Part shown: positions 9,301 to 64,000 of the stretch, piece by piece
Numbering within the stretch: position 1 is the stretch's first letter
Layout: every line of letters begins with the position of its first letter
From: Marsupella aquatica
Taxonomy: Eukaryota; Plantae; Marchantiophyta
Assembly: GCA_973895155.1 (NCBI GenBank)
Contig: OZ316893.1
Location: 27,476,210 to 27,540,209, forward strand
DNA length: 64,000 nucleotides
Reading direction: 5' to 3'
Made by a program: the position numbers and the translations under genes
The notes under the pieces: model-generated
Databases searched by the model: none
Told to the model about the DNA's origin: nothing
The model's input: only the letters and a program-made list of their open reading frames with translations

Positions 9301-9993
9301 AAGTTTTCGGCTGGTCTCCCAGAGCCTCAAAATTAATGCTCCGATTTAGCTCTCAATAAGCCAGATCATACCTGCCGTACCGGGACATGGTTTGGAGAAA
9401 GTGCACTGAACTGAATCCAGAACTCAAACACAACTCAACCTCCAAGAATGCTCTCAAAGCTCAATGTGATGCATGAAAATTTCGGGGAAAGCCTCTACTT
9501 CTCTCCAAATTGGAAAGGTACAGTGCAGTTCAAGTGCTTTCTGCCACCGGTACCTGATGGCTTCGATTTCACTACCGAACCCTTCACTTCGAAGTAGACA
9601 AAATCCGTTGATATGACCAGCCCCTCTGGTCCACCAAGCCACGACAACTAACAATTCATCCTCCACTTCCAAAACGTCAAGCGGCTCGACTATGATCGAG
9701 TCAATTGGTCCCACAGAAGAAAATATGCATGAATGCATATGTGACCATAAATTTTTATCAGCATTGTAGACTTCTATGCGATGGCTCCCCACACCACTCA
9801 TCAGATGGAGTTTTCCGTGTGCCGTGAAAAACAACGGGTTTGGACTTGTCCAGGAACTGATTCTCTCATTCCTCCACTGATCCCTGGTGGGATTGTAAAT
9901 GTCGAAAAATTCCTCGCGATTGGGATCGAGTTGGCCGTAATCATCTTCAGGAACTGGAACCCCTTTCAAGATGTCTCTGGTCATCCAAAACTC

Positions 9994-10253
9994 TGTTAAG
10001 TTTACGACGTTCATCCGGTGTACATACGCCACTTGCTGTTCCTTTGTCTGTTCCCCCTTCGCCTAGGTGTTATCTGGGGGGCCTGTATATGTGTGATTAC
10101 CGTTAGATTTAGGGTTAATCTTACTTACGGTCCGATTAGTATTCACTGTGCGGTGCATTCTCTCGCCGACCACTCTCTTAAGGACCAATTCACTGTTCAT
10201 TCTGTATTCTTGCTGAGTAAAAACAAGGGAAGCTGCGCTCGTCAGTTTCTTCA
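9994..10253 (+). repeat. 5' LTR
   Basis: TGTTAAG...TTCTTCA. I see 3 mismatches against the 3' LTR. Confidence 0.95.
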
Positions 10254-10265
10254 TGGTATCAGAGC
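10254..10265 (+). promoter_or_regulatory. Primer-binding site (initiator tRNA-Met)
   Basis: TGGTATCAGAGC immediately after the 5' LTR. Confidence 0.93.
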
Positions 10266-10326
10266 CCAGACTGCCAGAGCACGATCGTGGTGAGAATCTC
10301 CCAGCGTTACTCGCGTGCTGAGCAGA

Positions 10327-13300
10327 ATGGCTGGCGGCCCACAGCGATCATCACAGAGCAGCGGCTCCCAAGCTGCCTCACCAGGCAGCAGCACACAGCA
10401 AGCATCGCCAAGCACTGGACCTCCTGCAACTCAGAATGTCCACTACGAGTTTGACAAAGGCCTCGTCTATGCAGACAAGGACAAGCTCGATGGCAGTAAG
10501 AATTTCATCGGGTGGTCCTTCAAGGTGGAGCGACAGTTCCGCAAGGATAAAGTGTGGTTCGAGCTGGTCAGTCCAGACCCCACGAAGCCAATGCAACTCA
10601 CGCCAGAGCAAATCGAAGAAAAGAAGGAAAGAGCAATCTACATCTTCTCTCAGACGGTCAAGGATCACATCTTCCCTATCGTGAAGAAGTACATTGACGA
10701 TCCTGCCAAGATATGGCTGCAGCTGAAATCGCGCTTTGAATCCGTGGCCATGGGTAAGCAGCTCATCCTCAGGGATAAACTGCCTAAGATGCACATGTCC
10801 GAAGGGAGCAATGTTGAGGAATACATTCGTGAGATTGACAACTTGGTGATGTAGCTAGGTGACATCAATTTCGTTATAGAAGATAAGGAACTAATCCGCA
10901 CCACTCTCAAAGGATTACCTGCGAGCTGGAAGCCATTTATCATGTCGTTTGGTACCTTGCTGCATCAGTTCCCGACACTGTCATTCTCAGACCTTATTGG
11001 TCACCTTGAGGCCGAAGAAATGCAACGGGCTTTACAGAGCAACGACACCGAAGAAGCACTGATGACTAGCTACAACACCCAACGTGGTGGCCCTTTTCGT
11101 GGACGTGGCAGAGGCAGAAACAACTATCGTGGACGGGGACGAAGCGCACCTTCAGCCAGGAAGACCGAAGCCTGCAATTTCTGTGGGCATACTGGTCACT
11201 GGGAAGGGGAATGCCTCGAGAAGATTGAGAGCCAAATCAAGGGCCTACAAATCAAGCATGCGGACATTAAGAAGGGCATGCACCATGCAAACGTGGCTGA
11301 GACGATGGAACCTGAAGAATGTGAGTCTGACAGCGATCCCAACAGAAGCATCTTAGAAGTTAATCTCACAGAATTCAAAGCTAGTCAAGATTGGCTAGTT
11401 GACTCAGGTGCTAGTACTCATATAACTGGGAACAAGAGTACTCTTAGTCACGTTGTTCCATACGCATCCACCTCCAATGTAACTACTGCCTCTGGTGCAC
11501 GCATTCCAGTTGCTGGAAGAGGCAGCACTAAGTTCAATGGAAATAACGTGGTCAAAAAGGTTTTGTACGTGCCTGGGATGACTCGCAATCTCTTGTCGGT
11601 TGGTCAGTTGGCTGATGAAGGCCACAATGTATTATTTAATTCCCGTCATTGCTACGTGTTGGATAAAGAAGATCCTAATAAGATCTTTCTGAGGGCAACA
11701 AGGGATAGACACAATAGTCTATACCGACTAGACTCGTCTATTCAGGGCAATGCCAAGCTATGCTCTGAAATACACATTTCATTAGTAGATAGCACGGACG
11801 AGCATGCCAGCAGTCCTCCATCCAACACACCTACGAGCAATGCTGACAGTGAGACACAAAGCGATGTGTCACCCCTTGAGATATGGCACCAAAGGCTCAG
11901 TCACGTAAACTTCCGCAGAGTTTACAACATGTCTTCAAACAAGTTGGTTGAAGGTCTGCCCAAGCTGCCATTGGAGGATCATGTCTGTGATACATGCATC
12001 ATGGGGAAACAACATCGAGAGTGCATACCCAAGAAATCTGCCAACAGGTCAAAACCACTGCAATTGGTTCATACGGATCTTTGTGGCCCCTTGGTTGTTT
12101 CATCTCTTTCTAAAGCAAAATATTTGCTTACATTCACGGATGATTTCTCTCGCTACACATGGGTGTATTTCCTGAAAGCCAAAAGTGAAACCTTCTTAAA
12201 GTTCAAAGACTTTAAAGCTATGGTCGAAAATGAATTCGACAGCAAAATTCAATGTGTTCGATCAGATCGAGGAGGTGAATACTTGTCCAACAAATTCTGC
12301 CAATTTTGTGACAGACAGGGGATCAAGAGGCAACTCACAGCGGCTCGCACACCTCAGCAAAATGGAGTAGCAGAAAGGAAAAACCGAACACTACTCGAAG
12401 CAGCACGCAGCGCCCACATTGCAAGTGGAGCTCCCACGTTCCTATGGGATGAGCTCATTCAATCAGCCACATATGTGCTCAACAGGTGGGACACTTCCTC
12501 TTTGACCTCCTCCACACCTTTCCAACAATTATACAATGCCAAGCCTGACCTGTCTAGTCGAAGAATTATTGGATGCCTGGCGTACGTTCATGTTCCTAGT
12601 GAACTGAGACATAAGTTGTCAGCAAAGTCCATTCGGACTGCATTAGTGGGATATGACAAGAAATCGAAAGCATACAGGTGCTATGATCCTATCAAAAGAA
12701 AAATCTACATCAGTCGTGATGTTGTGTTCAATGAGTTAAAGATGTTTGACTTCAACATCAAACCATCTCAAGCCTCTGCAGAATTACCATTGATTTCACC
12801 GGCTCAGTCCATTTATATCTCTCCTGCAACACAGGAACAAAATTCCTACTCTGCATCCGAACCTGCATCTCCCGACTCTGTGCCTGTAGATCCTAGTAAT
12901 AGTACTAACTCCAACTTAGAGCCACTTAGCCAGTCGAATCTTCTCTTGAGGTTGAGCCCGCACCAGCTGACTCTACCCCTACGAGCACATTACCATTGCC
13001 ATCCCCAATTCGCAGGCAGTCATCTCGTGCTAGGGAACTCCCAGTTCGTCTACGCCAAGATTACGTGTTGGATTTTCGACCCAACAACCCTGATGTCTGC
13101 CTAGTCGAGACTACCGACCCTGTGAATGAAAACATCACATTCCAGCAAGCATGTTTGGACCCTCAGTGGAATGCAGCTATGAAAGAAGAATTTGATTCTC
13201 TGATCAAAAATGAGACATGGGTCCTCACTGCACTCCCACCAGGAAAGAGGGCCATCTCTGCTAGGTGGCTGTACAGGGCGAAGCCAGAGGTAAACCCCAC

Positions 13301-15082
13301 TCGCACTCTCGGGGGTTTCACTTCCACAAAAATGGCATATCACGTGCGACGAAGTATAGGGTCATTTTATTGGTTCGAAGGGAAGACTTAAGAATTTTCT
13401 GAGAAGAAAAATATGGTCTTTTAAATCCAATTTTGAGACTTATAAGAACATTAGGGTCCTTATAACCAAATTTTTGGAATATTCCAAGAATATTCCAATT
13501 TTATAGGGGTTGAAAAAATAAAAAAATTTCTTACATTTTAGGGGGTCCGAGGCCTAAAAACGTCACAGGTGATGGGGAGACATCCATATAGTGAGACCCC
13601 CGAGCTCGCACTCGACTGAAAGCTCGCCTGGTGGCTCGTGGTATTGAACAGCGCTTTGGAGTTGATTTTGAGGACACTTTCGCACCGGTTGTCAAGTGGT
13701 CAACCATTAGACTGGTTATTGCACTCGCTGTAGCTCTTGGCTGGTCTATCAGCCAAATGGATGTCATCACGGCTTTCTTGAACGGCAAGCTCAAGGAACT
13801 AATCTACATGGTGCAACCACCAGGATTTGAGGTCCCAGGATCCGAAGACCTTGTGTGCCAGCTAAATCGATCCATCTATGGCTTAAAGCAGTCCTCGCGT
13901 GCATGGTATGAGGAAGTTGATCGGTTCCTTCGCTCAAAAGGGTGGACCCGGAGCACTGCTGATCATAATTTGTACTTCATCAACGAAGGAGGGAAAATTG
14001 TTCTTCTTCTTCTTTTCGTTGATGACCTACTCATCACTAGCAATGACGATGCCAAAATTGATGAGGTCAAAGCACAACTCAGCCAACAGTACAAAATGAA
14101 GGATCTGGGCAAAGTCACCAGGTATTTGGGAATAGATTTTGTAGATGTGGCCGATGGAATGTTCATCCATCAACGTGACTACTGCCAAAGCTTCCTGGAG
14201 GAATTCGAAATGCAAGACTACAAAGGAGGAGCGACTCCTCTACCCGAAGGATTTGATGTATCGGCTGATATGCTATCACCTGGCGTGGATGCCACTCACT
14301 ATTGCAAGTTAGTTGGCAAGTTGATCTACTTAACTAACACCAGACCGGATTTGGCGTATGCGGTGGGGATTCTCAGCAGATTTATGTCATCTCCACAACA
14401 AAAACACATGGATGCTGCAAGGCACGTTCTCAGATACATCAAATCCACCATTGATTTTGGCTTACTCTTCCAGAGAACTGGAACTTTGTCTCTCTCAGGC
14501 TACACTGACTCAGACCATGCTGCGTGCAAAGACACTCGAAGATCCATTGGGGCCTATGTGTTCCAATTTGCTGGGGGCACTGTTACTTGGGCGAGCAAAC
14601 GAGAAGCAACGGTCTCACAGAGTACAACTGAAGCTGAGTACAGAGCCCTATCGGAAGGAGCTCGAGAAGCTGTCTTCCTTAGGCGTCTGCTCTCAGAGTT
14701 GAGCTTCATCCCAGAAATTCGGGTGGCATTGAATTGCCAAAATCAGGAGGTGATTTCAAATCTGTCGGTGGCCAGTCAACCCACCTTGCAAGATGCTCAT
14801 CTAAACTTACATTGCGACAACCAAGGCTCAATTAATTTGGCGAAGAACCCCATCTTCCATGCTCGGACCAAGCACATCGAACTCCAGCACCATTACATCA
14901 GGGAAAGAGTCCTGGAAGGAGAAGTGACGCTTAAGTACATTCCAACTGCAGAGCAACCTGCAGATATCCTTACAAAATCCCTTCCAAGATGGAAGTTTGA
15001 GAAACATCGTGAATTCCTTGGCATGAAGTCCCTACGCGACATTCTACCTACCCTGGGTAACGCAGCTACTCGGGATGCGTAG
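10327..15082 (+). pseudogene. Copia gag-pol polyprotein, disrupted
   Basis: Zn knuckle CNFCGHTGHWEGEC, protease WLVDSGAS, integrase HHCC plus HTD/RSD/AER, RT KARLVA...LLFVDDLL, RNase H GYTDSD/EAEY/CDNQ/ADILTK. Lesions: TAG at 10852-10854, a frameshift before about 12996, and a MITE at 13308-13604. Confidence 0.95.
13308..13604. mobile_element. 297-bp MITE with 14-bp TIRs and an 8-bp TSD
   Basis: CTCGGGGGTTTCAC ... GTGAGACCCCCGAG (1 mismatch). TSD CTCGCACT at 13300-13307 and 13605-13612. Excision restores VNPTRTRLKARLVA. Confidence 0.95.
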
Positions 15083-15644
15083 CATCGTGATATACCTCTA
15101 AGCAGTATTCACATCTATATAGCTGACCACCAAAATTGCCTTGCCCCATGCTTCGAAATCGGTGCCCATGGACTGCATGGTCCCCTGCTCGCTGCAACTT
15201 ATCCTGCAAGTATCGTTTCGCCTCGCTTCTCGTCTTGAATGACTTGTACACCTGACCCTTATACCCCTTTACTTGTGGCTCGCAGTCCTCCCAGGAATCA
15301 TACAATCCTGGAACATATCCCCGCACCACTGCATAGTACTTTCGCCTTGTGGTATGGTCACTGAAGTAGTGGGATGTTGGCACAACTGGCTGTATCGTGT
15401 GCTGTGCACCCTGTACATCAGGCGCTCGGGCGACTTTCACCATTACCTGTTTGCCCTGCTCCCCTATCTGTGGCTCGTCCTCTCTCTCGCCCTGGTGCTC
15501 TTCTACCTCAGTCGCACTCGCATTCAACTTCCATTGTACATACTGGAATTGAGTCTCGACCATATCTCCCAGCACCTTGAGTACCAACCTTATCGTACCC
15601 AACAACACCCAGAGCACTTGCAGGCCCACTCTGCTTACATCCAT
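15066..15644 (-). CDS. Antisense ORF of the copia element encoding an RNase H1 N-terminal hybrid-binding (Cauli_VI-like) domain
   Basis: Open ORF between pol and the PPT containing KYYAVVRGYVPGLYDSWEDCEPQVKGYKGQVYKSFKTRSEAKRYL. It has a hydrophobic N-terminus and a C-terminal H...CEYC. Confidence 0.8.
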   Translation of the reverse strand: MDVSRVGLQVLWVLLGTIRLVLKVLGDMVETQFQYVQWKLNASATEVEEHQGEREDEPQIGEQGKQVMVKVARAPDVQGAQHTIQPVVPTSHYFSDHTTRRKYYAVVRGYVPGLYDSWEDCEPQVKGYKGQVYKSFKTRSEAKRYLQDKLQRAGDHAVHGHRFRSMGQGNFGGQLYRCEYCLEVYHDATHPE

Positions 15645-15679
15645 TCTCCACACTTGCTCTGTGCATTTGATGGATTACC

Positions 15680-15692
15680 GGACGGGAGGGGG
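15680..15692 (+). promoter_or_regulatory. Polypurine tract
   Basis: GGACGGGAGGGGG directly before the 3' LTR. Confidence 0.88.
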
Positions 15693-15952
15693 TGTTAAGT
15701 TTACGACGTTCATCCGGTGTACATACGCCACTTGCTGTTCCTTTGTCTGTTCCCCCTTCGCCTAGGTGTTATCTGGGGGGCCTGTATATGTGTGATTCCC
15801 GTTAGATTTAGGGTTAATCTTACTTACGGTCCGATTAGTATTCACTGTGCGGTACATTCTCTCGCCGACCACTCTCTTAAGGACCAATTCACTGTGCATT
15901 CTGTATTCTTGCTGAGTAAAAACAAGGGAAGCTGCGCTCGTCAGTTTCTTCA
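15693..15952 (+). repeat. 3' LTR
   Basis: 260 bp, near-identical to 9994-10253. Confidence 0.95.
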
Positions 15953-17782
15953 AACTCATCCCCAACAATTTCAACTCGATCTGAAGTACTCCGGGCTGGC
16001 ACAGGACTAATCCGAGACCAAGTATCTTCATTGGGGTCATAAACCTCTGATCCAGCACTACCGCAGAACTCATCATGTCCTCCAAATACGAAAATCTTGC
16101 CGTCCATGACCTTACATGCAAATTCCTCTCTGGGCTCGATCATATCTGCACACTGTTTCCATTGCCCTTGCTCAACGAGGTCCAAAACATACATCTCACT
16201 ACTTATCTCAGTGCGCCGAGAATCATATCCTCCAAAGATATATATTTTTCCCTCCAATGACACGCACTGACAAGTTTGGGAACCATGGAGTTTGAACATC
16301 AGAGATGAGAGGAAGTTGACGATAGGAATTGTCCCTCATCGAATAAAGAGCTAACCGACAACTATCGCTCTCACCATCATGACATCTGATGAGAACAGCC
16401 GTCTCTGTAGAGTGGTGATGCACTCTTAGATTGTAGGCTTGACGACTTCGAATTAGACGGCGCCAAGCAAACGAAACTGCCGATAGGGCATACAGGTCTC
16501 TCCAGTGCAGCTTCGGGATAACCTTGTTCAAAGTTATATCATTAGGGATCCCTGGAAGAAGACCTTGAGAGCTTCGCTCAATTTGGGACGTCATCGGAAC
16601 TTGGATCCAGTTGCCTACAGATACCCTATTGATGCGTGATGGATAGACAGTCCTGAATGTTTGGTGGAGCTATCTTAATTGATTAACAGACTTCTTCCGG
16701 ATGAAGTTCACATTATCTGAAAACATCACAAAGTCCTTAATGAACATGAATACCCAGCGAAACTTTCCTGATTCGTATCCTAAGAATACATCTCATATCC
16801 GGAAATCTCATATCCGAAAGTATCAGCTCAAACAAGTCGTGAAAACTACATTTAAAAACGATATCAAGTGTATCATGCCGCCGTTTTACGCGTTTTCCCC
16901 ACTGGATTGAAATCACCCCTCACGTTACATGAAGTGCTCGGTAGAATGCATACCTGGAGGCAGCTAACTGCGCCGAAGCTAATACATACTGCATAACTTG
17001 GCTGAGTTCGTTGCAAGTTGTAACTGCACATTCGATGATCTGCACAAAGAGAATCATCGCCGATCACTTATATCTCCGCCTGCTGAAATCAGTGAGAGAA
17101 TGTGTAACAAGCTCCCTAAAGCTAAGGACCGAAGATTTTTGAAATCAGCCGAAGTAAGAGGAGTTACTGTGAGTCTTCACGAAATCAAACCCAAGTCGGG
17201 CTTGCTGTCACACTCTTGATGATATCAATTGTACTAGCCGTAAGTCTTGACCAAATCAGACCCCAAGTCGGGCTTGCTGCCAAACCTCGATGATATCAGT
17301 TGTAGGCGGGGCAGCGATTGCAGGAGCCGAAGCCCGATGAGATCTCTCAGACTAATAATTCCGCAGCCGTGAGGTCGAGCTCCACTTTGCGCACTGGCAG
17401 GGCAAGAGATCAAATTCGTAGGGCGACTCTTACATTGTGTCACTCTCCCGACATTGTGTCACTCACAGTAAATCGCTAGCTGAAGGGAAGGCTTGGATCG
17501 ATCGATCGCCTGCTGGATCGTGCGGACGGAGGCACGACACGGAGGTGGGAGCGCGGACGAAAGGCAAGCTGGTGCCATGAGGGTATGGGTACGGACCAGT
17601 GGGTCTTTTTTTAAAATTTCTGCAGGGTGTCACTTAGGGCTTGTTGAGATTCCTCCACGTAGTCTTCCTGGATTTGTATGGTCAAAATATGACCGTTAGA
17701 TATATGCAGTGTGAAAACATGACATTGAAATTAATATTTTGAGAAATTCCTATGGTTCTTGTTACTGCACTCCAATATATTG

Positions 17783-18005
17783 TAATGTTTCAAGACCTTT
17801 CCAACAGTATCAAGATAAACAATTTGGGTTCACTAACAAGAGAGTTATGAAAGGTCAATCCTGACCCAATGGGTAACTACCAAAAACAACCAGCAACTTT
17901 GAGATTCACATCTTCTTTGTTAGTAAGCATCAGTGAGCCATCTTGAGCTTTTTGGAAATGATTTATCATGATGACCTTGCCATTAACACCTATAATGCAA
18001 GGTCC
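17783..18005. repeat. Degenerate fold-back repeat related to the flanks of the 20-33 kb element
   Basis: The left half (AATGTTTCAAGACCTTTC...AGCAACTTTGA) resembles 19948-20073. The right half (TTCACATCTTC..TGTTAGTAAGCATCAGTGAG...CCTTGCCAT) resembles 33037-33115. Confidence 0.6.
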
Positions 18006-20783: not shown

Positions 20784-22058
20784 CTAGACCCAAATCTCAT
20801 GCTCCTCCACCCCGCAGAATTCATTTGAGCAAGTAAACCTAGACCTTGACGGGTCATATTTCATATCGCGATTACAGAAATTGAGAGGCTTTCTATTCCA
20901 GAACTTTGTTGTGAGGTCCCTACACCTCAAGACTTCCAAAACAAATCCCCGATGATTGTCTCTGTAGGGTCCTGTGTACTGATATCCAATTAATGTCTTT
21001 GCAAGGTCGTTGATCGCCTCCTCCGTCAATTCCTCCATTGGTGGTAATTGTTGCACTTCATTTTTGATATCCCAGGGAATTTCGTCCGCTGTAACATCCA
21101 AGACTGTATGGATAACATTGGGAACCCATACCATACTACCCCACCTCTCCGACAACAGAGCATAAATGGCAGCCTGTTGATCCCTGTCCGATAAAACATT
21201 GATCATAGACCACTTTGGATGATTGATAAAAAGATAGTGCTGAAGATTGAAGGCATGATACAATTTCCTGAGCAGAGGCCACAGTATTTCTGGAAAGAAT
21301 GTATCATCCGTGGAGTGATGCGAAAATGAGGAAGGAAACAACCCACAATTCTCTGGATTTGCAAACGCCTTCATTGGAGTGTCATCAAGAAGGAGTGTAT
21401 TAGTTTCGTCGTATAATCCACCATAACGTTTCCAAACAACTCTCAAATCCTTCAAAAGAATATTTGCCTTCCCATCGGTAATGTCAGGCCTCTGGATTCT
21501 AGTATCGAATGTATCTTCTTGAGTGAGAATAAACTTGAATTGCTCTCTCTCTTCTTGATTGAAGATCAAATGAATCATTTCATCCGTCCTGGGTTTCCTT
21601 GCACAAGTCCAAATGGCAAGATCAAATAATGAAAAAGCTGCGATTAAGAACTCGTGAAGATGGGGTCGCTCAACATACATAAAGTTAAACCCTCCACGTC
21701 TCCCCCAGTGGACACCATTGACACTTGTCGCACTACGGCGCGGTCCGGAACTTGGCGTTTTGACAGAATCCCAACACATTTTGTTGAGGTCAAGAATCAA
21801 TAGCTTCCGTCTGATTGGACCGTGAAGTGGAGGCAAGGGTCCTGCAAAGTACGAACACCAACGTTAGAATTGTGGGAGATAAAACAAAGGAATGCTCGAG
21901 ACGATCTCGATCATCACAAGTGAATGAACAACAGTCAACATCATACCTGTTGTTTGTGGAAGGTCAGTAGTTGAAGAAATCTCAGGACATCTTCGGAGAT
22001 TATTGTCGACGCACTCCACAATTGGTAAGGGCCCGCCTATTTCTGTGAAGGTAGACAT
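20784..22058 (-). CDS. FCP1/NIF-type HAD phosphatase-like protein (exons about 22058 or 22042 to 21947, and 21841-20784); may be the 3' part of the upstream gene
   Basis: KLLILDLN, ERPHLHEFL, LAIWT, LLKDLRVVW and NTLLLDDTPMKAFANPEN are FCP1-homology motifs of the DxN-type subfamily. A phase-1 intron, ACAG|gtatga ... ctttgcag|GA, joins the exons in frame. Confidence 0.8.
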
Positions 22059-22112
22059 AATAATTTAGACGGCTGAATTTCCGGACAGTTCAAACTAACT
22101 TGGGTTTCAACC

Positions 22113-25100
22113 TCACGTGCTGAAAGACCCAAATTCATCTAGAAGGTTATCTCCTAGTTGGTTTTGGATGTCCAAATTTATCCCTCCGGGAAGGGTCTCA
22201 ACAAGAGCTGGCTCAGACCAAATTGGCACTAATTTGAACTTATCCATCCTATACTTTCTAGATCGAATAATCTTCTTAGACTGCTCTATAGAGACTTGTT
22301 GACCTTTTGACGGTCCATCAGTCCAAACATAATGAGTAGCACTTGCTTTGAGTGATTTGTAACCAGTTCTACCGATTTCAGTCCCCGGTTTCCTAACAAA
22401 AGGGAGAATTACGGGGCTTCCAGTAGAAGAATCTGTGAAAACAAGCTTATTCTCTGAAGTGCAAAACATTTGGTCCAAGGGAGAGGACGATGCACCTGCC
22501 TCGTCCTGAGGGGGAGTATGGAAGCCACTAGCTTTCTTAGTAGAGAAAATCTCATCCAGTTGAGGAGGGCTTGGAATTGGTTGGCTAACTGCATCCTGCA
22601 GGGTGGATTCCCAGCCAACATCCAAGGTTGAAGACTGTTGTTCACGTTGTGCATCCCCAAGGCCACCCGATGAAGGAACACTTGGAACATCGAGATCATC
22701 TCGAGCATCATTTCCAAATTCAGGGAGTATTTCACCCTCCTCTTCCATGTAGCTTGTAATTTTCGGGCCCTCCGTTTTGCGATGCTCTAAATTCTCCGCA
22801 AATACTTCCTCATAAACACTGGCTTCCACTGGAGCTATGTCTGCGGCCGCCTCTTCTATAAGAACGAGGGGACCAGCAGTAATTTCCTCAGATGGTAACG
22901 GCTCCTTGGGTGGCACATATAAAACTTGCTTGTTGTCATGAAGGAGCTGAGCAAAGGCTTCAGTGAATTCCATCTCTTGAGCTGTGTCCGAATACACAAA
23001 ACAATCCCGACCAAGAATGACACAAGCTTTCAATGTCTGTCCTCCAGAGAAGAAATCCAACACTGTATGACCTGGGCACGAGAAATAATCAACAAGACGC
23101 TTTGTCATTCGCAAAGGCTTTGCTCTCGGATTTACAAAGCCACCACGCCGACCGACCATCTCATAAGATGGGGCCATCTTCTCCAAAACTTTGACATCAA
23201 CAGTGGATTCATCGAGCTTCTCTTTCCCCTTTGATTGGTCTTTGTTGTTCCCAGTAGGGGCCTTCAAAGGCAAGACTGTGAAGTCTTTGTCCCACTTCTC
23301 ACTGTAGTTCCAGAACGCATAAAAGTCATCAAAGAAAATTTGGGACCAGTCTGGTTCCTCTTCACAACAAATTCCCCCAAAGATGATTGAGTCCCGAGCT
23401 CCAATGAGAAAATCTCCCTCCTCCTTGGGCACCTGATCACGGTAGTAGCTCCCGTACTCCAGCTTCGTGTGCACTTTCTTCTCACGACGAATCTTTTCAA
23501 AGGCACTCTGAATCTGGCCTATCAATGGGCCTTGACGGACAAAAAAGATTACTAAGACCTCCGTCGAGTTCGCCATCTGCAAGCAATACTCCAGCAAGAC
23601 AAAAATTTCGGCATCTGTCCACTGCCGTTGTCGAATACGACCAAAATTGACAATGGAGAGTCAACAACCTCAGGCTTCATTGTCCTCATCAAATTATCGC
23701 TAAAAAATGTGCGATAAGGAGTATCCTCCATTGAAGGCAATCTGCCAAATACCTTGCAATATATCTGCTCAAGCCTCACAATGAGACTTTGCGGAAATGG
23801 GTCTTTTGGCCTATTTCTTTTTAGGAGGTTGGAAATCCAAACCTCTCCAGCAAGTTGTCTAAGTTTGGGCAACTCACCACGATCCATAAATGCAGGCAAC
23901 AATTGAGTTAGCTCAAACCAAGTGAGTGAATTGGTAAACCGATCCGGATACTTCAAAACGAAGTACTCCACAATTTTTACCCTCAGCTTGGTCATGACTT
24001 TGAAAGTATGAGCCATATCACTCATTGATTGAATATCAGATTTGTTGGTTTGGTCTTTCTTCAATAAAACCTTCTGTTGTTGAACGGCAGTAAAAACTTT
24101 CAGAATGTCGTCATTACTCAGGTCTCCTTCAAAGCATCTAAACAATGCCGGCGTAATCATTTTTGTTGTCCGGGCTTTCCCATTTATTTTTGAACCTAAC
24201 TCCCCTAGACCATCCGGAAGAAGTCCCTTGACCCAATCGATGCACATTTGTCTCCAAGTTCGGAAGAGGTTCTCATCCGAAAACAACAACCAAAAAATAT
24301 TCCTCAGATCGGATTTTCCAATCGTTATTTTGGCAAGGGCCATAAAATCCTGGTCCAAACAGTACAAAACAAATCTGAGGCTCGAGACGATCTCGAGGTA
24401 GAATTAAGGAACTATGATAAAATTTATGGGGAATACATGAAGATAAATCAAATATAGAAACTTGACCTCGAGGCTCGAGACAATCTCGAGCTCGAAGTGG
24501 ATTTGAGTTCAAATATACCTAGAACTTTTGATGATCCGTTAGTCTATTGGACCCAATCACGGGTCTCTCCGGACGGCCACACTCGTCAAACTGTCGACGC
24601 GCATGGACCATAGTATCAAGAAAACAGGACTCATACTCCATTGTCTTATTAACAGCATTTGCCCTTTGTGAGTGTTGAGCAAGTATTGTCCTTGGAGTTC
24701 TGTCCGAAAGAATTCGTGACGTTCGATATTGCAGACTCTTCGCGACCTCCTTCAACTTTGCATCGCTCTTAGCCCAACCTATGATCCAAACAGCTGCTTT
24801 TGCCGAGTGTTGTCCACTGATTGCAAGGAACTGCACCTTCTTATTCTTAACACCCCACTCAAACTCCTTTCGATCCTCAGCAGTATTCTCATAATGGAGC
24901 AACTGCAAACTCTCTCTTGAATACGGAATTAAATCCGCCACAGCTGGTACCATTCCAGGGTTTCTAACCATGGATTTTGCGACCTCCATGGCATGGTCTT
25001 TATTGAACATCCTATAAACCAAAACTGCAGATGGCGAATCTATACTGGTGACAGGAATGTTAAAAGTTTCATTCATGCCAAATGTGTAATACTCCTCAAT

Positions 25101-27012
25101 CTCCTTAAGAACTTCGGCTCCTTCCTTAACGCTCTTTTCTCCCGGAGCATCTCCTGGAGTGCCATCATCATCGGTATGTGCATTCACACCCGAGGAAGAT
25201 GCCGGAATGAGATCTACCTTGGGCGATGCGGAATTTTTTGGCGGATGAGCCTTCTTCGATTTGATTTCGGGTTTGTCAACCCTCTTCCTCTTTTGAGACA
25301 CCTTCGCTTCATTTTTGTCCGAACCGGAGGTCTTGTCTCCTGCAGCTACGGATTTCACTTTACCTGTTTGTCTCCGATGAGACAACACCCACTTTTTACA
25401 AGCATCTTGGTCAAATTCTTCGGCTCCAAACACAAAATCAGAGGATATAGATTCAAACTCCCCCAATTTGGATTCCAACATTAGTCTCAAAACCTTCCAC
25501 GTGAAAGGAGTCGTGAATGCATCATCGCGATCAAGCCCATACTTCCGACAATAAAGGAATCCAAAAATTATGTCCGCTCCAGATATAGGAGTATCTTCTA
25601 GCAAATTACTTGTAGTGAAACCCTCGGGGAAGAAACCCATTGATATCACGCTCAGTTGTTTCCTGGCTGCACGTTCAATGTTAAGATCGCAAGAGTAGTT
25701 TTTGGCGTGAAGTCTAATTAGAGCCCACTTCCCTGTTTCGTGGTTCTCCACCGTCAAAACCATGTCCTTACCGTTACTCGTCACAATAGAAACAACAGGC
25801 CCTAGAAGGCTGCACACCAGAGGATCGACTGATGGAGACCTCGTCTTCACACAAATAATAGTTCCTTCCATGTCTTCAGTTTCAGCAAGCTCAATGGCCC
25901 AACAGAATCCAAATAAACTCTGTCCAGGGCAGGAAATCTCAATTGCATGTTCATCTTCGACTACCAGATTAGGCGATCCCAATTTCGCACCTGTACAGCA
26001 AAAATATAGCAATTGTCAGGAACATGTACTACAAAACCAAGAAACAAATAGGTGGCTCGAGATGATCTCGATCTTCAGTTTACTATTCAGACATGTTCCA
26101 ATGTCATTTCATCCGTGGAATTTAAAAAGAGATTTCAAACCCAAGAATCCCAGGAAACACAATAGGCTCGAGATGATCTCGAGCCACCATCTGTTTAAAA
26201 GAAAAAGATAAGGGCTCGAGATGATCTAGATCCACATATATATCAGTTGAGGCTTTATTCCAACTAGTCCAAAAGGCAAGTTTGGATCACATTGAAAAGG
26301 ATATTAGTAATTGAAGTAGACAACAAGGAGTCCTTCCAACTGGAAGAAATTGGCCAAGGGAGACGAATGAACATAAGGGAAGACGGTGTGGGATATATTC
26401 GGCTCGAGACGATCTCGAGCCTAACATATCAAATGAGTGATCTGAATATCATATTCAACAATTAACATCATATTCAATCAACGATAAAAAATCCACTTTC
26501 TCCATTAACTTCGGATACCCACAAACCCGTTCGGATGTCAATGATCAGAACGAGTTGGAGGGCACAGAAGTCCCTGGAGGAAGGAAATTTTAGATATTTT
26601 GGATATAATGTTCAATTTTGAAGGGTAAGGGTTTCCAACTTGAAGAAATCTCACTAGGTCACATGCAGGAATTGCATATTGGCTCGAGACGATCTCGAGC
26701 CTCATGCCACTTACATCAAATGCAAAATCAATTAATAGATCACAACTTTTGAAACAAAGTATTGGAGAAAACATCAATAGGCTCGAGATCATCTCGAGCC
26801 TCAACGGCATCCAAGGAATCCAAAAACAAGTGGACCAATTGAAGCTCGAGACGATCTCGAGTTAAACCTGAACAGAACAAAGATGAAGAATTACGTTTAA
26901 TCGTGCGATGGATCTGATGTGCTGAGTCTAGATGGGTCTGGAGCTCTTCGCCAACGGTTGCAAGGTTGTACTCAGCGAAGTCCTCCTTGGAGAAATCTAC
27001 AACAGTCGACAT
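22113..27012 (-). pseudogene. Multi-exon gene: ParB/Srx-like domain plus N4/N6 DNA-methylase-like fold
   Basis: Exon 25990-24519 (acceptor tgtacag|) has IPVTSID...R.FNKDH...FLAISGQHSAKA. Intron 24518-24350 is preceded by TAG at the junction. The exon from 24349 has a frameshift at about 23590 and then NPRAKPLRMTKRLVDYFSCPGHTVLDFFSGGQTLKACVILGR. Upstream exons from ATG 27012 are tentative. Confidence 0.7.
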
Positions 27013-28165
27013 GGCTGGTGATGAGAGGAACGTACTACGGGCTGAGAACTTAAAACAAATCTCGACCCTAAAAAGAAAATCTCGACCCTATCGAAGCTCG
27101 AGCCTAAACACAAAATCTTGACCCTATAAAATCTCGAGGAAAAAACCTAATCTCGATCCTCTGCAATCTCGAGGCTAATAGAAGGATCTCGAGGCAAGAG
27201 CGCGAAACGATCTAGAGGCAAGGAGGCAAGGGATGCGAGGAGGCGAAGAGGCAAAGAGGCGAGGAGGCAAATGTGAAAATGGGGAGTTCAAAACCCCTGA
27301 AGCCACTATAAGCCCCTCGGGGGTCGGCCTTGGCCGTGCCAAGCGTGCCAGGGCTCGTGCAGGCTCAGGCAGGCTGCCACGCAACCTACTGAGTGCGTAC
27401 AGTCATTATTACGGTCACACGTGTTGTCATTATTGTTATCCATACTTCAGCCCTGCCGCAAGTTTAGCCGTGACACAAGTTCAACCATTCCGTCTTATTG
27501 CCCTTTTTGTCTGTCAGGGTTTTATATATTGCTTCTCCTTGCTCTTCAGCGGGTCATTCTTCTCATTTCGTTTCACCGCTCGCTCGTTTCTTCCTCTGCC
27601 TCTCTGCTCTCTCTCCCTCTCCCTCTCCCTCTTTCTGGCTCTAGATTTGTGCTCTGATCTCTTTCTGTTGTTCTTTTCAAGGATTTTGGAGTCTACGTTT
27701 GTGTTTAGGATATTTCAAGAAATTGTCATTTTAAGCCCCGAAGGAGGTCTAAAATAATTGAGCTCCTATCTTTTAGAAAACCGAACCTTTTCAGCTTATA
27801 CTAATGTCGGTCAAAATCCATTTGGAAGCCTTTTCCCTCTATTTGATGGCCTTTTAGAAGCTTTTTCTCAGTGTCTGGAAGTAAACTGGGAGCCTACTTT
27901 CTTAATTGCACCAAATCATTCCTCTAGATCATCTAGAGCCATTTATATGTTCTTATTTTGGGTGGCTTATTATTCCTAATAGTTTCTTTGTCAAATACAA
28001 TGTCCTTTTTGGCTCGAGATCATCTCGAGTCATAAGTTTGGTCCTCAAACTTATTCACTTTCCCCTTCTTTCTAATGGTGCATTTGGTTTTCCTTCTTAT
28101 AATAAATGTTTTTAGAGTGTCGGAGGTATAGAATCTTAGTTCGATATTCAGTGAGATTCATATTT

Positions 28166-28394
28166 TACCTCGAGATCGTCTCGAGCTAAATACTTCTGAA
28201 TTTTTACATATTGGTGTTTTTGGTCCCTTTTCTACCTCGAGATCGTCTCGAGCTAAATACTTCTGAATTTTTACATATTGGTTGTTTTGGTCCCTCTTCT
28301 ACCTCGAGATCGTCTCGAGCTAAATACTTCTGAATTTTGACGTATTGGTGTTTTTGTCCCTCTTCTACCTCGAGATCGTCTCGAGGTAGAAGAG
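28166..28394. repeat. 67-bp tandem repeat (about 3.3 units), each unit carrying the palindrome
   Basis: Unit TACCTCGAGATCGTCTCGAGCTAAATACTTCTGAATTTT..., with a period of 67/67/66 bp. Confidence 0.92.
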
Positions 28395-28517
28395 CTTCTT
28401 ATTTTCTCTATCACACAATTTTGTGGGATAAACTTCTACACTTGGGTTTTTGTAGTCACTTTACCTCGAGATCATCTCGAGGTAACTACATCCAACGGTT
28501 TGGGCCACGTTTTCAAA

Positions 28518-31500
28518 ATGGGGAGTTTCTCTCGAGGGGACAAGGTGTGCCTCGTAATCGACGGAGTGGAAGTTGCTTGCGGGACGGTCCTCAAGGTTGA
28601 CCCGGGTGACTCAGTGCGTAATGTTGATTTGGGAAGTAATCGTATAGGAGTTCTCATTGAGAAGTGCTATGAGGGATCACGGGAAATTCCTTACCCTTTG
28701 CCGCCGATCAGGACCCTGTTTGATGCTGTCGACTCTTGCATTATTTGGGATGCCCCTTTTGCATATTTGAAGTCACAGTCAACTCCAGCGACAACGAAAA
28801 TGGATGCCTCCTGTTCTACAAAGGATACGGTTCCGGGTTTTGTACCAGAGAAATCGTCGGTGGAAAGTTTTGGAGACTCGATTGTATCTGGCGATGAAGT
28901 CGAGGTCTGGATCGGCAATCAGATTGTGGCTCGTGGATTTGTGTTCAAGACGAATCCCGATGAGACATGTCACAATGAAAGACTTGGCACTTCTAGGATT
29001 AGTGTGAAAATATGTGAAGTTTTTCAAGGAAGGGAGAGGTTACCCTTTCCTCACAATGGAGCCGATACCGTTCAGGAAGCATTGGATACTTTTGTATTGT
29101 GGAATTTAAAGGATGTTACTCGGAGGAGTTCTTCCCGGGATATGCTAAACAACCTGTCCAGACAGGATGTTTTTCAAATTATAATTTCAAGGATTATAGT
29201 TTGCGTTCTAATTGGATGACCGAGGAGGTGGAATTGTATGCTGAGGATAATCGGACCAAAGTGGGGGTTGGCATCATCACAGTTCCTTTCGAGTCAGGTG
29301 CAATTGATGATGATGTTCTTGGACCAGATCACGTTGGGGTTGCTGTCACACGCGTGATTGACCCTCTATTTTTCCCAAATATCTCCCCGGGAGTGCCTGG
29401 TCTTGTTAGGTGGGCCGTCCGTTCACTTTTGCTGATATCAAGGGGTATTTTTCTTCTGGATCTCATTGAAGAGATTTCTCCGAAACCAATTATTGATGGT
29501 CGAGATCATCTAGAGGTAGATATGAAAGGTGACACTGAGTTTTTGAAGCGCCCGTATAATTTCATCAAGAGAACAAAGGTCAACCCAGATGAAAAAAGGA
29601 AGAAGCACTTGGAGTCTCGGGCGATACTGAAAATCACAGAGGAGGAAATCGACTCCATCCAAAGAGAAGGTTGTTGTAAGTTGAAGTGTTGCCTCAGCAT
29701 GCCGAGAGAAGACCTACAGGCGATAAGGAGGGAATACCATGGGATGTCAAGCGACAACAAAACTAGTCACATTCTCACTTTTTTTGGCTGTAGGGAGAAG
29801 GAAGTGGAGACAAGGATATTTTGTTGTAAGAAGTAGACTTGTTTGCAAGGGTGCATTTATTAAAATGCATGGATTCAGCACTGCCAAGTATTATGATTAC
29901 AAAAATCAATATGAAGCAGGTTGCACTGTTGGATTCCACGGAAACAAGGGTTCACACAAGACACGGGGAAGCACCTTGCATGCTCGTGCTTTGTTGGAGT
30001 CCATTCTAACCCAAAACGAAGAACCCATGCCGCATCTTCCCTATGGAGGGTCTCACGGGACTGACACGGTTGAGTACAGACTTCCATCTTGTTTCACGAA
30101 GAAAGAGATTTTTGAGGAGGTATACTCAAAAATGGAATTAGATGGCTACGTGAAGGTGAGTGAAAACACTATGTATAAACTCTGGAGTGAGTCCTTCATG
30201 AATTTTGACTTTCACAAGGGAAGTGCATTTGCAAAGTGTACACTTTGCACTGAGTTCAAAGATCAGTTGATGCGGGAGAAGAGAAAGAAAGAGCGTTTAG
30301 AGATTGAGGAAAGAAGAGCTCGCCATCTTCGTGAGCAAATGTCTAGGAGATATGTTTACTATGCTCATAGGGTTCTTGCGAAGAAGGATCTTGAGAACTA
30401 TCTTTGCATTATACATGACAAGATGGACCAGGCCAAGACATGGATCCCTAGGTTGGTCCCCACTCCTAAATCATTGTCTGGTAGTGGTCAACCGCTCCCC
30501 ATTGCGCTCACTGGGATGTTGACCCATGGAAGGGATCCCGGAGTGTATGCTCACTTCAGTTTTACTGGGCTTTGGCCAGGAGATGCAGACTTCACAGTGA
30601 CATCATTGGCCAAGTGCCTTAGAGATCTGGAGGATTACAAGGGGGACAAATCTGGAGACCTCCTTTAAGGATTATATTGGGCTACAACGAGGCCAATTTT
30701 TCAATCTCTTTTGGACTTTGAAGCATTTCTCGCAGGTTACTTAGAACCCAAAAAAGTCTCAATTGCTAGATTTCAAGGAGCTGAAGATGACCAAGACGAC
30801 TTTGGTGTTGATCCCAAGGCTACGTCTACCTCTTTCAAACCATTGCCAAGGCACCTGACCTTGCAAATGGATAATTCAGGGAAAGATAACAAAAACCAGT
30901 ACGTGATGGCATTTTGCAGTGAGCTTGTTAGTAGAGGGGTTTTTGAAACAGTGCAGATGTCGTTTCTCATGGTTGGTCACACCCATGAGGATGTCGATGC
31001 ATTGTTTTCAAAAGTATCCAACCAAGTGAAGTACAAGGAGGTTTCTACCCTCTTGGGGTTGATGGCTGAGGTTTGGGAGTGTGAAAGCATTCATCCTGTG
31101 CCACGGTTGATCCAAGAGGTTGCAGCTTACAAAGAGTTTTTGAAAACTTTCAAGGTAAAAGACATAGAGGGTCACTCAAAACCAGTGGCATTTCTTTTCT
31201 CTATGAGAGATAATGTTCCAATATATCAATACAAAGCACATGTGAAACAACCTTGGTACCCTCCAACCGGAAGGTCCATTTGGAGAACTGATTCCAGCAC
31301 CAATGCTCTCATTTTACCAGAAGGTCAACCGTTTGCAAAACCCATCTCCGGGGATGTACGAGGCAAGGTTGAAGAAATCATCTCATTCCTTAATCGTTAC
31401 ATTGAGTTTTTGAAGAAGAGCTGTAAGGATGAGACCTCTACAGCATATCGTGAGCGGTTTCCTTTGGTAAAATATTGGGAGATGGTGGTGCAAGTATTAT

Positions 31501-32204
31501 CTGGGGAGCTTACAATTGAAGGGGAGGCAGAAATATAGTTAGCATTGACATATGAATTCTGGCCAAAAACCAACCACGGAACTGGTTACAAGGTTAATAG
31601 TACAGGAACCTCTGAACCATTGGGGGAGCCTAGTAGTAGTACACAGAATCCACAAATGGTGGAGCTTAAGAATGAGTACCTGGAAGAGATGGAGGATCAA
31701 GCTGCAACATTTGTTGGTGCTCGACACGAGCGAGAACTTGCACGTTGGATTCCTCTGCAGGACATTCAAGAGGGTCACTTTGTATTTCTCCGTCCAGAGG
31801 ATGAATGGGAAAAGAAGAATGGGAAAGAACGTTTCTGGTTGGTGAGAGCTTTGGGTGTTGTGGACCCAAACCATGAGGTTCCTTCAGAAGACTTGCAATG
31901 CAATGAGAATTCTCCTACTAGTACACGGTATGCTCCTATGTTCCAAGTGCAATGGTGGAGGCCTAAACATGGTAAGCATGATGCACCGGATCATGTGCGA
32001 TATTCACGTTGTTTTCAGACCACTAAGACTTGGGAGGTGGATCCTGGGTTTGACAGTGCCACTGAACGTTGGCAATTTGCTAATTCTGCTATGTATGGAT
32101 TCAAGTCACGCTCTAGAGAAGAAAATATAATTGATAGAGGTTTGACCATTCCCAAGAATGTTTTGAAAACACTCAAAACCTACATGGAAGGGATTGTTGA
32201 GTAA
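28518..32204 (+). pseudogene. Transposase, Sola1/DUF7869-like RNase H fold, with three N-terminal Tnp1/En-Spm-like repeats
   Basis: Motifs CTLC, CIIHDKMDQ, LQMDNSGKDNKN and FLMVGHTHEDVD. Five ORFs join into about 1230 codons through two frameshifts (about 29150 and 29800) and two in-frame stops (30666 TAA, 31536 TAG). Confidence 0.8.
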
Positions 32205-59071: not shown

Positions 59072-59142
59072 GCACTGCTGGTCTAGTGGTAGAATAGTAC
59101 CCTGCCACGGTACAGACCCGGGTTCGATTCCCGGGCAGTGCA
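59072..59142 (+). tRNA. trnG-GCC: tRNA-Gly (GCC)
   Basis: Cloverleaf with a GCACTGC/GCAGTGC acceptor stem, A box TGGTCTAGTGG, anticodon loop CTGCCAC and B box GGTTCGATTCC. Upstream CAA and downstream TTTT. Confidence 0.96.
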
Positions 59143-59523
59143 CGTTTTGCTATCCTCGTGTTATCGTGCGGGTTGAGTCTTATTTATACTCAGTTTCGTT
59201 TTGTGCCTACTACAAACGCTGCAGTTGAACGACAGAGGTTTTGCATATGTGGGGCTTTTCCTTTTGTGCCCTCAAGCAAGGTCGGCAAATCAGGTGGCAG
59301 ACCATGTGGTTTTTTCATATTGTGAATTAGGGCAAGGGGACAAAGAGAACCTTGTGGTTTTTCCAAGTGGAGTGGCGGCAACCTGTTAGCATCTTTTCGG
59401 TCTAAGTAGAAAATACAAGGTCAAATATATAGACAAATGACACCCAAGAAAGCTTACTTTCGATGGGCAACTTTGAAGACTGTCTCTGTGATACAAGTGC
59501 ACAAGCATATCAGATAACTACAA

Positions 59524-61270
59524 TGAAGCTGCTATATATGGTGAGTCCACTTTCCAGATTTTGTCTTATTAATAATTTTTGTGTCATCTATTTTTATTTC
59601 AATGTGCCTTATCAAGGGGCAGCTTTTGTATCATGTACATTTTAATTAGTTTTTAGACCCCTTTAATTTTAGGTATTCTGGAATATCTTGAGTTTATTTT
59701 GGCAGCCCCTTTATGACTTTTAAAGTATGTGATCTTTTAGAGATGAAACCAATGGGCTCCACCACTTGAACAAAACATTCTCATGAGTGAAAGAAACTAT
59801 TCTGAATACAAAGTTGCTTCACTTTTTAGAGTGGTCATCATTCAAATTTGCAGGGCACAAAAATTAAAAAACCTGACCAAGAGAAAGAATAAAACAAAAT
59901 TAAATTATATTTAGTGTGAAATAAAGAGTGACACTTTTTCCAAGAAGTGAAGGGGAATGTTAGGGAATGTCAATGCACAATAATCAAGTACTTTATGGAC
60001 CATGTAAGTATAGTACTATCCATGCATCCAATGCCCCATGCATAGAAATAGTACTATCCATGCATCCAATGCCCCATGCATAGAAATAGTACTCTCCATG
60101 CCTAGACATTCATATCAAGTATCCCATGATAATCTATGTACTAGGAGGAGTTTAATTGATTACAAATATTACATAATGTAATAAAAAAATCAAACCAAAA
60201 AAAAGTACAAAAGGCCTAAAAAAGAGGGGGGGGTGGGCAGGGAAGGTTTGCAAGGAATTAAAAAATGAAAAATATAAAGACAAAAATCATTTTTAATTGG
60301 TGATACTTTGTGGTTGTTGTTACTCATTTTTTGCACCACATTTTTTACTTAAGAACATTTTGGGTGACACCACATCATTTTTGCTTAACGGCATCTTGGG
60401 TGATACAACATCATTTTTCTAAAATAACAACATCTTGGGCAACACAACATCTGTTTTTCTTAATGACACCTTGCATGACATGACATCGTTTTTCTTAATA
60501 ACATCTTGGGCAACATGACATTTTTTTTTCTTAACGACATCTTGAGGGGCATGACATTTTTTTCTTCACGACATCTTTTGTGCAATGCACGGGTATTTTC
60601 TTCACGGCATCTTTTGTTCTCAACAACTTCTTGGCCGACATGACATATTTTGTCTCACCGACATCTTGGCTGACACAACATCTTCCTTCTCAACGACCTC
60701 TTGGTCGACACAATTAACATCTTTTGTTCTCAACGATGTCTTGGCTGACATGACATCTTTTGTTATCATCGGTTATCTTGGCCAACACAACATCTTTTGT
60801 TCTCACATCTTGGGCGACATGACATCTTTCTTCTCAGCGACCTCTTGGCTGACACAACATCTTTCTTTTCAACAACCTCTTGGCCGGCATGACATATTTA
60901 TTCTGGACAACCTCTTGGCCGACATGACCTCTTTTGTTCTCAACGACATCGGGAAATCTTGGTCATCGGGAAACCTAGGAAAGAAAAACATGAGGAGAAC
61001 TTAAGAGGCTATGCATTCATGTTCTTCAACATCATTTCTCTCACTCATGGTGGTGGAGCCTTTGGTTTCATCTCTAAGAAAACACACACCGTGAAAGGGG
61101 GCTGCCAAAATAAGTTCAAAACACTCTAGAATACCTAAAACTAAAGGGGTCTAAAAATTAATTAAAAATGTATAGAATACAAAGACTGCCTCAGATTGAA
61201 ATGAAAATACATGACACAAAAATCTGAATAAGACAAAATCTGAAATGTGCCTCATCATATAGCACCTTCA
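59524..61270. mobile_element. Fold-back/MULE-like non-autonomous element with TIRs of about 250 bp
   Basis: 59524-59800 is the imperfect reverse complement of 61035-61270 (e.g. TTTTTAGACCCCTTTA vs TAAAGGGGTCTAAAAA; ATTTTGGCAGCCCC vs GGGGCTGCCAAAAT). No clear TSD. Confidence 0.8.
60345..60950. repeat. Degenerate minisatellite of about 36-39 bp
   Basis: Consensus approximately CAACGACATCTTGGCCGACATGACATCTTTTGTTCT, roughly 15-16 units. Confidence 0.85.
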
Positions 61271-62891: not shown

Positions 62892-63863
62892 TCATCGGTC
62901 GAACGTGTACAAGATATCAGACCGCATGGTGAACTTTGTCCCTTCTATCACGTCGTCCCCCGAATGCAACAGCCCCGCATGCTGGAAGACGAGAACCCTG
63001 CCCGCCACCGGATCAATGTTCAGTCGGTGCTCCATGTCGCGGCTGTGGAAGGTTGTTGCGCCACCGGTGCAGGTTTGGAACGTGGAGGAGGATGAACGTT
63101 CGGGCTGGACCGCAGCGAGGTCGGTCGCTTCCGAGTTTTTCTTCGCCTGCACAGAATCGTTAAGGTACAAATGCAATGTATAGAACGTTCTTTCCTCTTG
63201 ACCTGGCGTCTTGTAGAAGCCGTCGCAATGTGGCCTAAAAAACTGGCCTCTGCCATAGCGAAGAAACCGTAAGCGCTGGTTCAGCCCGGTAGGTTTCCAT
63301 CTATGGCCCAAGCTCACTGCAGTGCGCCCAAGAATGCTCTCTTTCTCCTTTCCTTCGATGACTGCTAAATCCTGACGGAGCTGTGGCGCGAGCAGGCAGC
63401 GTGACCAGATGCGGTTCGCGACATCGGCCGAGTCCCAGATGATCCGGTCGCTGTTTCGGTAGTCTGGCATGCTGTACTCCAACCCTGCGCGGCCAGAATT
63501 CACGAGGGCGGGCTTCCAGCCGTCGAATACTTTCTCTCCTTTCCCTCCTTTCTTTGGTTCCCTTCCTTCAGAGTGCGGTGCAACAGTACCAGTGTGCCCT
63601 CCGGCGCTGAGCTCTGCGAGGTAGATGAGCTCTTGGCATTCTGAGGGGCTTAGCACGTTGTCGAGCACGACGGCGTAGTGAGCTCGGTACTCGGGGATAG
63701 CGGAGGTGTTGAAGTCAATTTTGGTGTATGTTACCCGTGGTTGTGTGGACGGTGGTTGGCTGGAGAGGAAGTCTGTAGGGATGGAGACAGGGCGGGAGAT
63801 GTAGCTTGTTTCGACAAGTTCGCGTCCGCTGGTCTTGGCTCGGGCCTTTTTGAAGAACACCAT
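62892..63863 (-). CDS. 2OG-Fe(II) dioxygenase (prolyl-4-hydroxylase-alpha-like), intronless
   Basis: LNQRLRFLRY...F.PHCDG (HxD), TLHLYLND, GGATTF, GRVLVFQH...LLHSG (distal His) and KFTMRSD. Open 323-codon ORF. Confidence 0.9.
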   Translation of the reverse strand: MVFFKKARAKTSGRELVETSYISRPVSIPTDFLSSQPPSTQPRVTYTKIDFNTSAIPEYRAHYAVVLDNVLSPSECQELIYLAELSAGGHTGTVAPHSEGREPKKGGKGEKVFDGWKPALVNSGRAGLEYSMPDYRNSDRIIWDSADVANRIWSRCLLAPQLRQDLAVIEGKEKESILGRTAVSLGHRWKPTGLNQRLRFLRYGRGQFFRPHCDGFYKTPGQEERTFYTLHLYLNDSVQAKKNSEATDLAAVQPERSSSSTFQTCTGGATTFHSRDMEHRLNIDPVAGRVLVFQHAGLLHSGDDVIEGTKFTMRSDILYTFDR

Positions 63864-64000
63864 CGCTAATAGATTTGGCCGGTGGGAGAGGTTTCCAAGT
63901 GGTAACGAGGCTGATGTGCGTCACAACTAGTTGTCACAATCGGGTCAGAGGTTGCCTCAATCTGTATCCGGCGGCGTCAAATTCATGCAATGCTGGCGAA

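Follow-up and report, generated by a model that had tools for sequence, protein, structure and literature searches.

Antisense open reading frames (ORFs) in the 3′ part of plant LTR retrotransposons are known mainly from Ty3/gypsy elements of the Tat group, and the available text of the reports assigns them no known function (PMC7264820, PMC11963269, PMC4408406). The Tat frames, called aORF-3R or eORF-3′R and exemplified by Grande gene23, RIRE2, Retand TRP28 and Ogre PMD, are separate genes located between pol and the 3′ LTR, and they are described in the sections available as conserved across subfamilies (PMC7264820, PMC11963269). In copia elements they are rare: the available part of Additional file 5 of the REXdb survey gives 3′ antisense ORFs for 1% of SIRE elements and for none in most copia lineages (two of its rows are ambiguous as to column), which agrees with the premise of an earlier sequence-only reading of the locus studied here that extra ORFs in copia elements are usually sense. 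The domain table for extra ORFs in the same survey, which counted solely ORFs of at least 250 codons, holds no PF01693 in the portion available. The env-like ORF of SIRE (eORF-3′F) is likewise an extra copia ORF between pol and the 3′ LTR with a hydrophobic segment, but it is sense and has no hybrid-binding domain reported in that portion of the REXdb table.

Captured nucleic-acid-acting domains have been reported from other classes of element, including AlkB of an orchid Ty3/gypsy element (PMC12786077) and the bdelloid ORF3s (PMC5408684), and capE of a Pleurotus Helitron carries pfam01693 itself, reported in one Helitron copy (PMC4289320); as far as the available text of these papers goes, none of them is an antisense copia gene. 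A nuclease-less protein with the same domain is P6/TAV (viroplasmin) of caulimoviruses, which is also a retroelement accessory protein but is encoded by a separate sense gene of a pararetrovirus, whereas the gene described below lies in an integrase-bearing LTR element. We found no published description of an antisense copia gene with this domain in the literature outside subscription papers, and a conserved, domain-bearing antisense accessory ORF in copia is apparently undescribed so far.

The window, a 64,000-nt stretch of contig OZ316893.1 of the liverwort Marsupella aquatica, contains a young copia LTR retrotransposon at 9994–15952, in which a long minus-strand ORF is situated between pol and the polypurine tract (PPT), antisense to gag-pol (Table 1). 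By position and orientation this ORF is an antisense additional ORF (aORF-3R), but its host element, unlike those of the Tat ORFs, is Ty1/copia, and its product, hereafter P0001, has a domain of known biochemistry. An intact minus-strand frame of about 192 codons overlapping the pol stop by 17 bp had been described in the sequence-only reading, and the frame was confirmed from ATG to stop, with the 17-bp overlap reaching the end of the RT/RNase H ORF (15082). The start context of the ATG, which is 35 nt from the PPT, is strong (A at −3, G at +4), and the other five frames over 15066–15674 contain 3–9 stops each. The antisense transcript presumably originates in the 3′ LTR. Between the end of this LTR and the ORF start there are five upstream ATGs, and the 565 nt that follow the ORF stop on the minus strand were found to lack a polyadenylation hexamer; neither observation is decisive.

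Table 1. Coordinates in the window of the copia element, its antisense ORF and the interrupted host gene.
Feature	Position	Strand	Basis or remark
Interrupted Kelch gene, likely 3′ part	9454..9993	-	Kelch_1 only E 0.09
5′ TSD AACTC	9989..9993	.	duplication flanking the element
5′ LTR, 260 nt, TG...CA	9994..10253	+	3 differences from 3′ LTR
PBS TGGTATCAGAGC	10254..10265	+	directly after 5′ LTR
gag 5′ part (PF14223), ending at premature stop	10327..10854	+	ORF and Pfam
gag 3′ part, protease (PF22936), GAG-pre-integrase, integrase (PF00665), SH3-like	10855..13104	+	ORF and Pfam
MITE-like insertion in RT, 297 bp, 15-nt TIRs, 8-bp TSD CTCGCACT	13308..13604	.	
RT (PF07727) and RNase H ORF, stop 15080-15082	13595..15082	+	ORF and Pfam
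Antisense accessory ORF, 192 aa (P0001)	15066..15644	-	ATG 15644, stop 15066-15068
C-terminal tail H156-x4-H161-x16-C178-x2-C181	15087..15179	-	predicted three-stranded, putative zinc ribbon
RNase H1 hybrid-binding domain, residues 102-145 (PF01693)	15210..15341	-	Pfam
Predicted long N-terminal helix, residues 3-50	15495..15638	-	hydropathy and model
PPT	15680..15692	+	purine tract preceding 3′ LTR
3′ LTR	15693..15952	+	direct repeat, 260 nt
3′ TSD AACTC	15953..15957	.	duplication flanking the element
Interrupted host Kelch-repeat gene, 5′ part	15953..16669	-	Kelch_1 E 8e-19; F-box-like only E 0.043

The element shows the hallmarks of Ty1/copia, namely two TG...CA LTRs (different at 3 of 260 nt), a 5-bp target-site duplication, a primer-binding site (PBS) and a PPT, and its Pfam matches are arranged as PF14223, PF22936, PF13976, PF00665 and PF07727, which is the copia order Gag-PR-INT-RT-RH. 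The three lesions that had been counted in gag-pol are real: a stop at 10852–10854, a frame change near 12930–13104, where the gag-protease-integrase ORF changes towards the frame at 12930–13391, and the 297-bp insertion at 13308–13604, which we take to be hAT-like from the length of its TSD. That the antisense ORF is unbroken while gag-pol is broken had been pointed out in the sequence-only reading, and we rejected this contrast as a sign of selection because three lesions in about 4.75 kb correspond to about 0.37 expected in 579 bp, so that an ORF of this length would be unbroken about 69% of the time. The PBS presumably belongs to the full initiator tRNA-Met type. Elements of the Bryco lineage differ in this respect, having a half tRNA-Met PBS in the part of REXdb available.

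The element is inserted within a minus-strand Kelch-repeat gene (9454–16669) that is probably of the F-box/Kelch type, judged from its domain matches. The antisense ORF is on the same strand as this gene, so the host promoter reads in its direction, and this copy could be read from that promoter. Such an arrangement would also suit a host gene family or a passenger, that is, a captured fragment of no benefit to the element, which we regard as improbable for reasons given with the homologs below.

Other features were seen elsewhere in the window. A large block at 20784–32204 resembles a multi-gene DNA transposon; on the minus strand its ORFs include a NIF-type phosphatase domain (PF03031, E 1e-16) together with a stretch resembling N6/N4 methylases (PF01555, E 2e-6), and its plus strand holds an ORF chain that is broken by stops and frame changes and contains DUF7869 (E 1e-39). 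A 47-nt direct repeat is present at 17904 and 33036. At 59640–61167, 73-nt inverted repeats flank an array of 35–36-nt repeats, perhaps a non-autonomous DNA transposon, and a tRNA-Gly gene is located at 59072–59143. A long open minus-strand frame at 62892–63920, in a stretch of higher GC, has a 2OG-Fe(II) oxygenase domain (E 4e-10).

PF01693 is the sole Pfam family found in P0001. The hybrid-binding (Cauli_VI) domain proposed from the sequence scored 68.2 bits over the whole model, the cut-off being 21 (E 7.1e-19); Atlas feature scores of 0.81 and 0.76 were taken as leads only. A first structural model of P0001 (pLDDT 60) gave no fold match, and a model made from 12 aligned sequences reached pLDDT 78, with the helix at residues 3–50 followed by a disordered linker, the domain, a helix to residue 159 and three strands. 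This model fits human hybrid-bound 3bsu to 0.7 Å over 46 residues (E 2.7e-3, probability 1.0), and a wide structure search with P0001 returned only generic long helices (Z ≤5.4). The full Pfam match is common to P0001 and the RNase H1 hybrid-binding domains compared (human 3bsu, yeast 1qhk and the bacterial-type P0007 and P0008).

Residues W118, Y133, K134 and S135 of P0001 align with human W43, F58, K59 and K60. In human RNase H1, W43A abolishes and K59A/K60A reduces hybrid binding, according to the available text of the report (PMC6846478). The W43 and K59 equivalents are kept, and the K60 position is Ser in 12/12 aligned sequences, as it is in the RNases H P0007 and P0008. The predicted fold and the kept W43 and K59 equivalents suggest that P0001 is likely to bind duplex nucleic acid. 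P0001 nevertheless differs from RNase H1 in that it lacks the catalytic domain (PF00075 matched 0/12 family members), has Ser at K60 and joins the hybrid-binding domain to a hydrophobic helix and a tail of the H/CxxC type.

The domain of P0001 shares 62–64% identity with those of P0007 and P0008 and 17–42% with P6 models, and this higher identity identifies no donor. Most of the matched P6 models have 420–530 aa, and their TM-scores by query were ≤0.30. The analogy with P6 drawn in the sequence-only reading is thus weakened, and so is the P6-like silencing suppression derived from it. A suppressor would bind dsRNA, such as sense:antisense duplexes of the element, and hide it from Dicer; in vitro, dsRNA as well as hybrids are bound by the P6 motif (PMC5902531, available text), anchoring to a membrane would agree with a role in the cytoplasm, and genomic RNA would be a pairing partner for the antisense RNA itself. 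We nevertheless consider suppression unlikely, since the P6 domain (dsR) is reported in the same text to be tied to TOR activation and not to be required for suppressing RNAi, the rest of P6 is missing from the ORF, matches to P6 models are weak, and the top structural match is the hybrid-bound domain. P6 was therefore rejected as a direct model for the suppression of silencing. The TOR-binding and TOR-activating property of dsR (PMC5902531, available text) suggests another use of the domain, as a protein-binding surface for TOR or ribosomal partners, with the helix building a membrane-tied replication body or aiding movement, and the helix-linker-domain layout of the predicted model would accommodate it; this is quite improbable, because the most conserved residues are the nucleic-acid-binding ones and the domain is nearer to RNase H domains than to P6.

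Outside the domain, both the hydrophobic N-terminus (Kyte-Doolittle 19-residue maximum, 1.79) and the H/CxxC tail anticipated from the sequence are present. The predicted helix is hydrophobic in its first half and amphipathic in its second, and the 19-residue maximum at the N-terminus is 1.65–2.61 in 7/8 family proteins, a pattern in keeping with either a signal anchor or a buried helix. All matches of the tail to zinc-finger and ribbon families were weak (E 0.1–2), and the complete H-x4-H-x16-CxxC pattern was found solely in P0001 and 11 near-clade records among 160 collected proteins. A zinc-ribbon-like tail would also suit self-regulation, in which the protein or the antisense RNA binds LTR R-loops or the hybrid at the PPT and adjusts or restrains transcription or reverse transcription as a copy-number control. 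Grande and Retand antisense ORF products are nuclear or predicted DNA binders and have been proposed as regulators in the available text (PMC7264820, PMC11963269), and the antisense transcript would run through both the PPT and the pol stop; however, the hydrophobic helix suits a membrane or scaffold better than chromatin, and we hold self-regulation to be distinctly unlikely.

Homologs were collected by three word-indexed searches and one exhaustive profile search followed by cluster look-ups. Eleven clusters at 90% were obtained, with 23–57% identity to P0001: a near clade (clade 1) of eight clusters (43–57%) and a far clade (clade 2) of three (23–30%). Two near-clade members are partial, P0029 ending before the tail and P0024 beginning inside the domain. 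All homologs are Logan records except P0016, annotated in the liverwort Calypogeia fissa (CAM6111292.1), which is short and changed at conserved positions; this member suggests a liverwort range for the family. The profile search gave 8,217 matches, of which the best 150 were taken and 31 of those scanned against Pfam; most of the 31 were RNases H1, tandem-domain proteins or helicases that had the domain alone in common with P0001, and no intact donor combining helix, domain, tail and nuclease was seen among the best 150. Viral contigs yielded 17 domain-only loci with 0 family and 0 pol loci, metagenomes yielded one locus, a bacterial RNase H, and prokaryote genomes two, with no family member among them; none of these 20 loci had an RT or integrase like that of the window's element.

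Conservation along the protein is uneven. Within the domain, the seven clade-1 homologs covering it match P0001 at 30–36 of 45 positions (P0024, 16/22) and the three clade-2 homologs at 21–23 of 45, and the linker of about 40 residues gives 3–13 matches. W118 is kept in 11/11 aligned sequences covering the position and K134 in 11/12, while H161, C178 and C181 are kept in 11/11 sequences reaching the tail and H156 in clade 1 only. A further His, at the position of P0001 residue 26 in the N-terminal helix (H-x-x-x-E), is kept in 7/7 covering homologs, and P0001 has Gly there; it is speculation that this His serves as a fourth metal ligand in clade 2, which lacks H156.

A kept domain and tail joined by a variable linker is the pattern expected from selection on a protein, and we infer that the ORF product is very probably a selected accessory protein. 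The accessory factor of the sequence-only reading therefore stands as an accessory gene, conserved across the 11 homolog clusters, and its capture does not appear to be a one-off event. The same observations weigh against a host gene or passenger, as frame and motifs are kept down to 23–30% identity in two clades and the matches scanned contain no intact donor.

Whether the layout recurs was seen at the DNA level by aligning contigs of four public runs to window positions 14700–16000. A 775-nt contig of run X2, whose organism label differs from that of X1 and X4, is gap-free from the pol end through the ORF and the PPT to the LTR start and shows 14 differences. A subfamily about 84% identical spans the same features with one 1-nt insertion, placed in X2 at 15661, outside the ORF and upstream of the ATG. 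Record 4 of X1, which belongs to this second subfamily, differs at 67 of 446 nt and at 31 of 185 nt, the two parts being separated by a diverged 98-nt stretch of equal length, and run X5 contributed one 265-nt low-depth piece within the ORF. In sister contigs of X1 and X4, about 82% identical in RNase H, position 15044 is joined to 15667, or 15014 to 15670; these junctions skip 622–655 nt and place the RNase H end directly next to the PPT region. These runs contain related elements that have the gene as well as others that lack it. The antisense ORF is thus present in two subfamilies and under two organism labels and absent from sister elements, and the gene is accordingly dispensable.

The sister elements are in keeping with a passenger, as are the substitutions. 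In-ORF differences (26 among 40 of 173, a biased sample) comprised 11 synonymous, 15 non-synonymous and 0 stop changes, giving P 0.014 without transition bias and 0.07–0.10 with it, so that purifying selection at the DNA level is not significant. The recurrence of the layout in a diverged subfamily argues in the other direction, and the same is probably true of P0006, a homolog with a long tail. When this tail was placed on the window's Gag-Pol in about 4,000 ways, the best placement was antisense over RNase H from residue 461 onward, in the window's own phase and 129 nt from the CxxC (138 nt in the window), and 1/300 and 1–2/60 shuffles were as good. In five short-tailed homologs 14–235 of 300 shuffles were as good, and the same test also missed the known short overlap of P0001. 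From the P0006 alignment it seems probable that the same antisense layout recurs in its element, and a location of the homologs at the same place in other copia elements is supported indirectly.

With these results we return to the role of the selected accessory protein. We tentatively propose, as a possible role, that this nuclease-less hybrid binder protects RNA:cDNA intermediates of its own element against the host's RNase H. An antisense transcript starting in the 3′ LTR would encode the protein, which would bind these intermediates and cover them against the host enzyme; host RNase H1, which finds its substrate through the same type of domain, would face it as a competitor. The N-terminal helix may anchor the protein to a membrane or oligomerise and so keep replication intermediates at one cytoplasmic site, and the tail may bind zinc. 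Sister elements without the ORF would be served in trans or would simply do without. Hybrids form inside particles, which a separately made and possibly membrane-bound protein may not reach. By analogy, the dsRNA binding of the P6 version of the domain would also count against a hybrid-specific shielding role. Yeast cells that lack host RNase H have more Ty1 RNA:cDNA hybrids and higher Ty1 mobility, as stated in the available text of two reports (PMC4214602, PMC7524711), and a hybrid-covering decoy would accordingly pay. The fuller statement, that a liverwort copia lineage has fixed a membrane-tied, nuclease-less RNase H1 decoy as an antisense counter-defence gene and swaps or loses it as a module, appears somewhat doubtful.

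The available text of two reviews (PMC7264820, PMC11963269) gives no known function for the extra antisense ORFs of plant LTR retrotransposons, and this function has stayed obscure largely because their products resemble nothing of known activity. P0001 has a domain with a solved structure and known binding residues, so that its role is directly testable with a small protein. The locus also shows that an antisense accessory ORF occurs in copia, shorter than the 250 codons that the reference survey required, and suggests RNA:DNA hybrids as an arena of conflict between plants and the elements they host. If the shielding role is true, this RNase H1 decoy would be the first antagonist of host RNase H restriction to be encoded by a retrotransposon.
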